DNA of 64,000 bases from a virus: positions 1-64,000 of IMG/VR virus record IMGVR_UViG_3300035670_000075; one strand, 5' to 3'. Both the position numbers and the translations under genes were made by a program. Shown piece by piece: positions 38,257 to 40,429 of the stretch. A model generated the notes under the pieces. The model was not told where the DNA came from. It did no database searches and saw nothing but the letters and a program-made list of their open reading frames with translations. The number at the start of each line of letters is the position of its first letter. Position 1 is the stretch's first letter.

Positions 38257-38443
38257 ATGCTGCGGTAAAGAATTTCCGCAAACCAGCACGCCAAAAATAT
38301 ACTGCTCGCGGGCTTGCGCGATACGAAAGGTAGGGATGCCACAAATTATTGGCAAGGAGAAAAGAAAAAAGCTGCGTAAACAGGGTGTGTGGTATACTGA
38401 AAAACAAGTTCCTTTAGGGGACTTGGTTGATTACAATGAATAA
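38228..38443 (+). CDS. small zinc-finger protein
   Basis: CKCCGKEF...YCSRAC. Confidence 0.6.
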   Translation: MKKASTLICKCCGKEFPQTSTPKIYCSRACAIRKVGMPQIIGKEKRKKLRKQGVWYTEKQVPLGDLVDYNE

Positions 38444-38502
38444 ACAGAATCTCGTTGGCATCCGTTTCCAGGTATCGGTAAAACCTGGATGATTTTAGAG
38501 TG

Positions 38503-38569
38503 TATTTACAAATCCATATTGTCGCGCGCTTCGACAAGCTCAGCGAGCGGCAATATGGATTTGTAAATA
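38503..38569. repeat. 28-bp stem hairpin immediately upstream of tmRNA
   Basis: TATTTACAAATCCATATTGTCGCGCGCT / AGCGAGCGGCAATATGGATTTGTAAATA, 2 non-Watson-Crick positions, 11-nt loop. Confidence 0.85.
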
Positions 38570-38577
38570 GATTTTAC

Positions 38578-38914
38578 GGGGACGACAAGGCTTCGACAGT
38601 GTGAGTGAGGTATGTCGTGCAGGTAGGTGAGAGTGTCACCTTAAAAAAACTCAAACCAGCAATCGCAAACGACGAACGCTACGCCGTAGCTGCTTAAGCT
38701 ACGCTGCATCGCGGCGGTGCTTGTATACCGCGAATCGCAGTCATTTACAAGATCGTCATGCCTGATGTCTGCGACGGCTTGATTAAATCGGCGGACTCTC
38801 CGCGCCTAAGCCTTTCGCTCGGCGTCGTCGCGGTAACCCAATAGAGCGAATAAACCTGTAGATCGGCATGGTGAAACATGCTGGACGTGGGTTCGATTCC
38901 CACCGTCTCCACCA
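38578..38914 (+). ncRNA. ssrA: tmRNA, one-piece, 337 nt; tag ANDERYAVAA
   Basis: 5' GGGGACG pairs with 3' CGTCTCC-ACCA including the G3-U alanine identity pair; T-arm GTGGGTTCGATTCCCAC; resume codon GCA 38665 to TAA 38697. Confidence 0.95.
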
Positions 38915-38938
38915 TGTTTATTTTTAACCCATATAAAA

Positions 38939-39133
38939 ATGCCTGAAGAAAAAGATAGGTACTGTTCGTTTTGTGGACAGCCTAGCGACATCGTGGATTT
39001 GCTTATCGCCGCGCCTGGAGAGCAGGCGTTTATCTGCAATGAGTGCGTGGTGTCATGTGTTGACCTAATCAATAAAGTTTACATCGAGAGACGCAATGGG
39101 AAACAGAACAAACGCAAAGAAGTTCAGAGCTAA
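38939..39133 (+). CDS. stand-alone ClpX C4-type zinc-binding domain protein
   Basis: YCSFCG...LIAAP...ICNECVVSCVDLI mirrors the ClpX N-domain (YCSFCG...LIAGP..ICDECVDLCNDII); no ATPase domain. Confidence 0.85.
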   Translation: MPEEKDRYCSFCGQPSDIVDLLIAAPGEQAFICNECVVSCVDLINKVYIERRNGKQNKRKEVQS

Positions 39134-39419
39134 TCTACGCCAACGCACGACTGAAGCACTCCTCCAACATTCAAAGCAGATGCTCGCGGGAGTAGCCGCC
39201 GAAACCAAAGAAGATGCGGCTATCAATACGCCGGTCGATACTGGTGAACTGCAAGAAGGATGGGATACTGAAGCTTCTGACAATGGGCTTACGCAGTCAA
39301 TTTTTAATGACACCCCGTATGCGAACGAGCGTGAGTTTGCGCCTGGCGGTGGCATGTTGCGCATGGCGACGTTGCCCGGCGTAATGGAAGATCGCGGAAA
39401 GAGGCACTGGAACAAATGA
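39096..39419 (+). CDS. HK97 gp10-like neck/tail completion protein
   Basis: TPVDTGELQEGW...NDTPYA...E motif. Confidence 0.75.
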   Translation: MGNRTNAKKFRANLRQRTTEALLQHSKQMLAGVAAETKEDAAINTPVDTGELQEGWDTEASDNGLTQSIFNDTPYANEREFAPGGGMLRMATLPGVMEDRGKRHWNK

Positions 39420-39811
39420 ACACTTGTGTCAGTATCAATCTCATTGCCGCAGTAGGTAAGAGCGGACAAATTGGGCTTGACGGCGTGCTGCCTTGGTATG
39501 AACCGCGCGACTTGGCGTGGTTTCGCTGTATGACAATGAATAATATCGTTGTTGTTGGTTGGAGAACGGCGCAGAAGCTACCGTCGTTACCTGGGCGAGA
39601 GTTGATTGTATTTCAGCGTGGCGGGATGTCGATTGATGATATTATCCGGCACGCTAACGCCGCCAACAAAGATATTTTTGTGTGCGGTGGCGCTGCAACC
39701 TACAATGCTTGGATGAGTAAGATAGACAGGTTTTATATCAGCCGTATTGATTACGATGGTGAGGCTGACACATTTATGGACGTATCAATATCATGTCGTA
39801 CAGCCAGTTAA
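39416..39811 (+). CDS. dihydrofolate reductase
   Basis: LIAAV...IG...LPW...DLAWF...T...VVGWRT, LPGR, VCGGAATY, ADTF. Confidence 0.9.
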   Translation: MNTCVSINLIAAVGKSGQIGLDGVLPWYEPRDLAWFRCMTMNNIVVVGWRTAQKLPSLPGRELIVFQRGGMSIDDIIRHANAANKDIFVCGGAATYNAWMSKIDRFYISRIDYDGEADTFMDVSISCRTAS

Positions 39812-40378: not shown

Positions 40379-40429
40379 CACACAAAAAAGCCCGCCATGC
40401 GTTTATTGCGTGGCGGGCTTTTTTGTGTG
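40379..40429. terminator. bidirectional intrinsic terminator
   Basis: CACACAAAAAAGCCCGCCA...TGGCGGGCTTTTTTGTGTG between convergent genes. Confidence 0.9.

Follow-up and report, generated by a model that had tools for sequence, protein, structure and literature searches.

The window analysed here, 64,000 nucleotides in length, comprises the initial 64 kb of an IMG/VR virus record of 105,387 bp that was judged 95% complete; the record represents an uncultivated phage whose DNA was found in subsurface metagenomes. Its plus strand carries a block of cargo-like genes that includes, in this order, a DNA methyltransferase, several unknown genes, a small Zn-ribbon ORF, a tmRNA gene, an ORF for a stand-alone ClpX-type zinc-binding domain (ZBD), an HK97 gp10-like gene, a dihydrofolate reductase (DHFR) gene and another unknown gene. 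The elements of this region are listed by position in the window.

38496-38576, no strand assigned: imperfect palindrome of about 79-81 nt with 35-nt arms that are 86% complementary, ending one base before the tmRNA 5' end
38578-38914, plus strand: one-piece tmRNA gene with encoded CCA (ARAGORN, Rfam RF00023)
38665-38697, plus strand: tmRNA tag reading frame, ANDERYAVAA and stop (ARAGORN, positions 88-120 of the gene; sequence)
38915-38938, plus strand: A/U-rich spacer of 24 nt without Shine-Dalgarno sequence or terminator (sequence)
38916-39095, plus strand: insertion/deletion polymorphism comprising the spacer and ZBD codons 1-52, absent in the ZBD-less relatives (X4 and X1, see below)
38939-39133, plus strand: 64-aa stand-alone ClpX-type ZBD with Cys 9, 12, 33 and 36, domain at residues 8-46 (Pfam, fold model)
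39096-39419, plus strand: HK97 gp10-like or tail-completion-like gene (Pfam, PHROG), located directly after the tmRNA in the X4 relative
39416-39811, plus strand: DHFR of 131 aa (Pfam, PHROG), a same-strand neighbour
40379-40429, no strand assigned: 22-bp inverted repeat with T and A runs, terminator-like, the first such element downstream of the tmRNA, closing the plus-strand block

The gp10-like gene, of tail-completion type, lies apart from the structural module and is start/stop-coupled to the short 131-aa DHFR gene (39096-39811). Upstream of the block, on the minus strand, a single ORF of 8036 aa (11590-35700) was read as a giant tape-measure gene. Although the genome measures 105 kb, its head genes resemble those of Mu (major head protein phrog_371, protease phrog_53); relatives of the capsid are at most 59% identical and reside in Mu-like contigs of roughly 38 kb, which are of no use for synteny.

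ARAGORN identified a single tmRNA (38578-38914, plus strand) with the tag ANDERYAVAA*. The Rfam model RF00023 matched at identical coordinates and untruncated, from model position 1 to 374, scoring 161 bits where the gathering threshold is 47 (E 1.2e-63). As read from the sequence, the acceptor stem pairs GGGGACG with CGUCUCC before the terminal ACCA and contains a G3:U wobble. The T-arm is GGUUCGAUUCC, and the end of the molecule is tRNA-Ala-like in all three respects considered (G3:U70, T-arm and CCA). The tag frame begins with the resume codon GCA, stops at TAA and encodes a C-terminus of degradation type. Both programs are thus in line with the first-pass annotation, which had described an intact tmRNA with a tag ending in VAA. 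The 105,387-bp record contains exactly one tmRNA; a second, weak tmRNA-like match at 153-207 coincides with an A-rich coding start and was taken as chance.

No SmpB is encoded anywhere in the 105,387-bp record, so the phage tmRNA would need host SmpB. As a canonical proteobacterial-type molecule dependent on this host factor, it would add ribosome-rescue capacity and would attach a normal degradation tag to proteins. Bacillus phage G likewise carries a complete tmRNA without an SmpB of its own, but it has full ClpX and ClpP proteins encoded far from the tmRNA, whereas here the docking domain only is present and adjoins the tmRNA gene (PMC12484599). Neither SspB nor a dedicated ClpP is encoded in our phage, the only match to a ClpP fold being the prohead protease.

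Many temperate elements integrate into ssrA, and the phage genome has two tyrosine recombinases. The tmRNA gene could accordingly serve mainly as an attachment site, or as a replacement copy of host ssrA after integration, with the ZBD as unrelated cargo. We consider this role highly improbable. The tmRNA has its full length and an undamaged tag frame and is not a 3' fragment, and the recombinases are about 50 kb distant, at 88-89.5 kb. In a BLAST search for the host against 401 sampled Pseudomonadota genomes, the tmRNA matched at its universally conserved ends and the tag region only. The two recombinase genes are adjacent to each other and in opposite orientations (record positions 88154-89506).

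The 64-aa ORF matches the Pfam family zf-C4_ClpX (PF06689) with 53.4 bits, well above the cut-off of 27 (E 2.4e-14). The match spans residues 8-45 of the protein and positions 2-38 of the 39 in the model, and it is the sole Pfam match of this ORF. Cysteines 9, 12, 33 and 36 are invariant in an alignment with other ZBDs. The above-threshold HMM match and the four cysteines confirm an earlier assignment of the ORF, namely that it consists only of the ClpX N-terminal C4 zinc domain. The ORF stops at residue 64 and is followed by the gp10-like gene; both the AAA+ module and the ClpP-docking loops are absent. Since it lacks the AAA+ module, the protein is not a ClpX. It is also the single ZBD in the 105,387-bp record.

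The AF2 model of the protein has a pLDDT of 87 and shows a treble-clef fold. Its best Foldseek matches are the E. coli ClpX ZBD structures 2DS5 and 2DS8 (TM 0.83-0.87 on target), from which it deviates by an rmsd of 1.3-1.4 A at 48% identity. A two-copy model gave an ipSAE of 0.73 against 0.00 for the best control, a value that may reflect memory of solved ZBD dimers; in the calibration of such predictions, 20 of 30 proteins whose solved structure is a pair attained the mark, as did 1 of 23 whose solved structure is a single chain. The dimer runs agreed in at least 96% of contacts, with a partner pLDDT of at least 79. By modelling, the 64-aa protein is a free copy of the ClpX N-domain that is predicted to dimerise. 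It resembles the ZBD of ClpX in its C4 treble-clef, with about 46-51% identity across about 40 residues, and may also share the symmetric dimer. In contrast to ClpX, it has no AAA+ motor, carries a two-residue loop insertion before the second Cys pair, takes its C-terminal tail from an overlapping frame and has free ZBD proteins as its closest kin.

The identity of the 64-aa protein to any known protein does not exceed about 61%. A comparison with 1.84 billion representative proteins placed it nearest to short proteins that contain one to four ZBDs and are not ClpX. The protein therefore falls in an old free-ZBD lineage and did not arise as a fresh copy of the 5' end of host clpX. The top-scoring relatives belong to a large set of proteins with two to four tandem ClpX-type ZBDs and no AAA+ domain, for which we know of no function. 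A word-indexed protein search and a search of viral contigs yielded no close relatives of the 64-aa protein, nor were any found for its gp10-like neighbour. When the 2.6-kb region was compared by blastn with 50,697 phage records, the DHFR was matched and nothing else.

The 3' end of the ZBD ORF overlaps the next gene. Residues 53-64 (12 codons) and the stop codon are encoded within the opening 38 nt of the gp10-like gene, which starts at 39096 and is read in another frame. The basic tail, which the first-pass annotation had counted as a part of the ZBD protein, is an out-of-frame read of the gp10-like gene start; it is a by-product of the frame-overlap junction and no designed appendage.

The distance of 24 nt between the tmRNA CCA end and the ZBD ORF (38915-38938) was correctly noted before. 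No Shine-Dalgarno sequence was found in this spacer upstream of the ORF, and a weak A-U hairpin can cover the AUG. No sigma-70-like promoter or terminator was detected between 38250 and 39600. The hairpin at 40379-40429 is bidirectional and stands at the end of the plus-strand block. Judged from these signals, the tmRNA and the ZBD ORF are probably transcribed together, since they are on the same strand, 24 nt apart, with no terminator or promoter-like site between them and no terminator until 40379.

Comparison with relatives shows that the content of this region varies. Public metagenome contigs were aligned to the region, and one independent relative was seen, in the form of a short contig from a run of a different study (X4). 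This contig of 573 nt is about 94% alike and extends from the upstream ORF over the tmRNA into the start of the gp10-like gene. It keeps the tmRNA without the ZBD gene, with position 38915 joined to 39123. The gp10-like homologue starts 13 bases past the CCA and has the in-frame N-terminus MSNRSKAKL, followed by FRANL and further residues. In the source sample itself, a minor variant skips from 38432 to 39093 (depth 6.1, side 44), and the palindrome, the tmRNA and the ZBD are all absent from it. A weaker variant of the same sample (X1) lacks the ZBD alone, with a joint of 38915 to 39101 whose shorter side is merely 24 letters long. The slot between the Zn-ribbon ORF and the gp10-like gene (38432-39100) thus occurs in an empty form, a tmRNA-only form and a form with the palindrome, the tmRNA and the ZBD.

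Because these variants differ in content, we regard the slot as hypervariable, with the tmRNA and the ZBD coming and going separately. The ZBD-less forms could be deletions and not the ancestral state. Such a population snapshot, in which two elements appear and disappear independently, argues against a module at the level of a pathway.

The palindrome adjoining the tmRNA varies as well. Its arms are unique within the phage genome. A direct repeat of 7 nt, GATTTTA, is located just upstream of the palindrome (38489-38495) and again in its right arm (38570-38576). The X4 relative has no palindrome; position 38490 is joined to 38570 with 7 letters that fit both sides, and GATTTTA stands at both skipped ends. 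By its sequence the palindrome looks like a small hairpin-type insertion of MITE-like character.

The explanation that we prefer, and hold to be somewhat better than an even chance, is that a single hypervariable slot received the tmRNA and the mini-ZBD in two separate insertions of accessory ('moron') genes, which do not form a conserved functional unit; the ZBD protein would itself likely act as a competitor. The two genes would have piled up between the Zn-ribbon ORF and the gp10-like gene by stepwise insertion of cargo at a hot spot. The exact placement of the ZBD right behind the tmRNA could be selected.

The same polymorphism is also compatible with the ZBD ORF being a recent, neutral or poorly expressed insertion, that is, a domain-sized fragment that gained its stop from the next gene. 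The presence or absence of the ZBD within the population, the missing Shine-Dalgarno sequence and a tail and stop that derive, out of frame, from the gp10-like gene all agree with this explanation. The state of the domain does not: its four cysteines and hydrophobic core are intact, it scores 53 bits, and it has a confident fold and a predicted dimer. Nor do the identity ceiling of about 61% and the abundance of comparable minis of 56-85 aa in phages speak for a neutral fragment, and we therefore see it as an unlikely origin of the ORF.

According to the first-pass annotation, the adjacency of the two genes marks a functional module: the phage would co-express the tmRNA and a ZBD decoy, ribosome rescue would be boosted, and SspB-enhanced delivery to ClpXP would be damped or redirected. 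The tight same-strand adjacency without a terminator between the two genes is in favour of such a module. So is the tag, which retains the SspB-binding AAND..Y part and the Ala-Ala end (tag modularity, PMC8512704), and a free ZBD competes for adaptors in vitro (PMC7226468). The comparative data, including the X4 relative with its tmRNA and no ZBD, point the other way.

A degenerate ZBD search of viral contigs returned 113 relatives, and the best 80 of the 113 loci were examined. Short ZBD ORFs (up to 150 aa) were present at 57 of these 80 loci; minis of 56-85 aa are among them, as is a family typical of P2-like prophages whose members measure 107-121 aa. No tmRNA was found within 5 kb of the mini-ZBD at any of the 57 loci from the best 80 of 113. 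Among 50 whole ZBD-bearing viral records, 28 of which are at least 90% complete, none had a tmRNA above the Rfam cut-off. Conversely, a ZBD was found in none of the five viral records with a likely phage-borne tmRNA. We also scanned for the junction itself, defined as a tmRNA 3' end followed by C-x-F-C-G within about 20-80 nt; neither 185,579 species genomes nor 241 million metagenome records nor IMG/VR contained another true junction.

The adjacency is thus private to this phage population as far as sequence comparison goes, and it has no comparative support as a sign of functional interplay; the claimed module was not kept in the X4 relative and has no second instance in the other phages searched. 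Moreover, cargo genes cluster in insertion hot spots, which raises the expected frequency of a tmRNA-ZBD adjacency above 2 in about 150 genes. On this balance the co-expressed module appears improbable, about as much so as the neutral insertion. Slightly less credible again is that the ZBD is fixed behind the tmRNA because the pair cooperates. In that event, 3' processing of the tmRNA would yield a short-leader mRNA for the docking-site decoy, and rescue would be uncoupled from adaptor-enhanced ClpXP degradation, or the phage would shield its own proteins.

The junction scan returned 0, 34 and 31 matches; the real-looking ones were ends of tRNA-Ala, tRNA-Tyr or tmRNA genes followed by a chance C-x-F-C-G. 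A tmRNA 5'-end pattern, tried on viral contigs as a census of phage tmRNAs, retrieved 44 tmRNAs that were mostly host ssrA at provirus edges and was therefore unsuited to that purpose. Most of these 44 carry the tag ANDENYALAA.

Stand-alone ZBDs are not peculiar to this phage. They are represented in the PHROG families 12435, 5259, 6797 and 20296, and examples include a 110-aa protein of the P2-like Escherichia phage PhiR44_2 and a small ORF of Caulobacter phage Cr30. Like the protein described here, they are small, consist of a ClpX-type ZBD or have one as their final part, and are cargo-like genes in varied contexts. In contrast to our locus, none of those examined is near a tmRNA, and the 64-aa protein is among the shortest. 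It is 33-52% identical to the other mini-ZBDs aligned. In other phages the neighbours of mini-ZBDs are heterogeneous and comprise HTH proteins, a terminase or Mu-type portal, and ThyX, with no common context. A literature search found no paper describing or testing a phage stand-alone ZBD. The present locus adds a very small natural free ZBD, with about 47 core residues.

A possible activity of these proteins is suggested by work on E. coli. The isolated E. coli ZBD, added in trans, inhibits sigma-S breakdown mediated by RssB, and ClpX deprived of its ZBD continues to degrade ssrA-tagged substrates (PMC7226468). SspB binds the AANDENY part of the tag and lowers the KM for ssrA substrates about seven-fold (PMC8512704). 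Because an isolated ZBD behaves in this way in vitro, we infer a decoy effect for the 64-aa protein. If expressed, it would soak up adaptors of SspB or RssB type, N-domain-dependent substrates and other partners of the ClpX N-domain. Substrates recognised at the pore, for example bare ssrA tags, would stay largely unaffected. The protein belongs to a widespread class of phage copies of the ClpX N-domain that, by analogy, plausibly titrate ClpX adaptors. Other small proteins for which an influence on the substrates of ClpXP through the adaptor step has been proposed or shown are the SspB homologue of phage pf16 (PMC5587285) and the anti-adaptors IraD, IraM and IraP. These mimic or block the adaptor, whereas the phage ZBD would mimic the docking site of the protease. 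If free ZBDs do titrate adaptors, copying of the docking site would be a simple and widespread route by which phages reshape host proteolysis.

Apart from such competition, the free ZBD could form mixed dimers with ClpX N-domains, or it could deliver a phage protein to ClpX as a minimal adaptor. The predicted dimer interface and core residues similar to those of E. coli ClpX are consistent with mixed dimers, and the longer phage ZBD proteins (107-121 aa) have an extra helical domain that could hold cargo. Our 64-aa protein has no second domain, however, and the ZBD dimers of ClpX are reportedly constitutive, a description attributed to Wojtyra et al. 2003 and to the Pfam family text. We regard either activity as rather remote for the 64-aa protein, more so than the module or the neutral insertion, and favour a competitor carried as separate cargo.

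The placement of free ZBDs in other viral contigs is diverse. One mini-ZBD is encoded directly past a large terminase and one beside ThyX. Another lies between a Mu-type portal gene and a gene for a 608-aa protein without a Pfam match, possibly a terminase. The ZBD-like frame of phage Cr30 extends across two small ORFs of the annotation and is located about 300 bp upstream of a tRNA-Arg gene.
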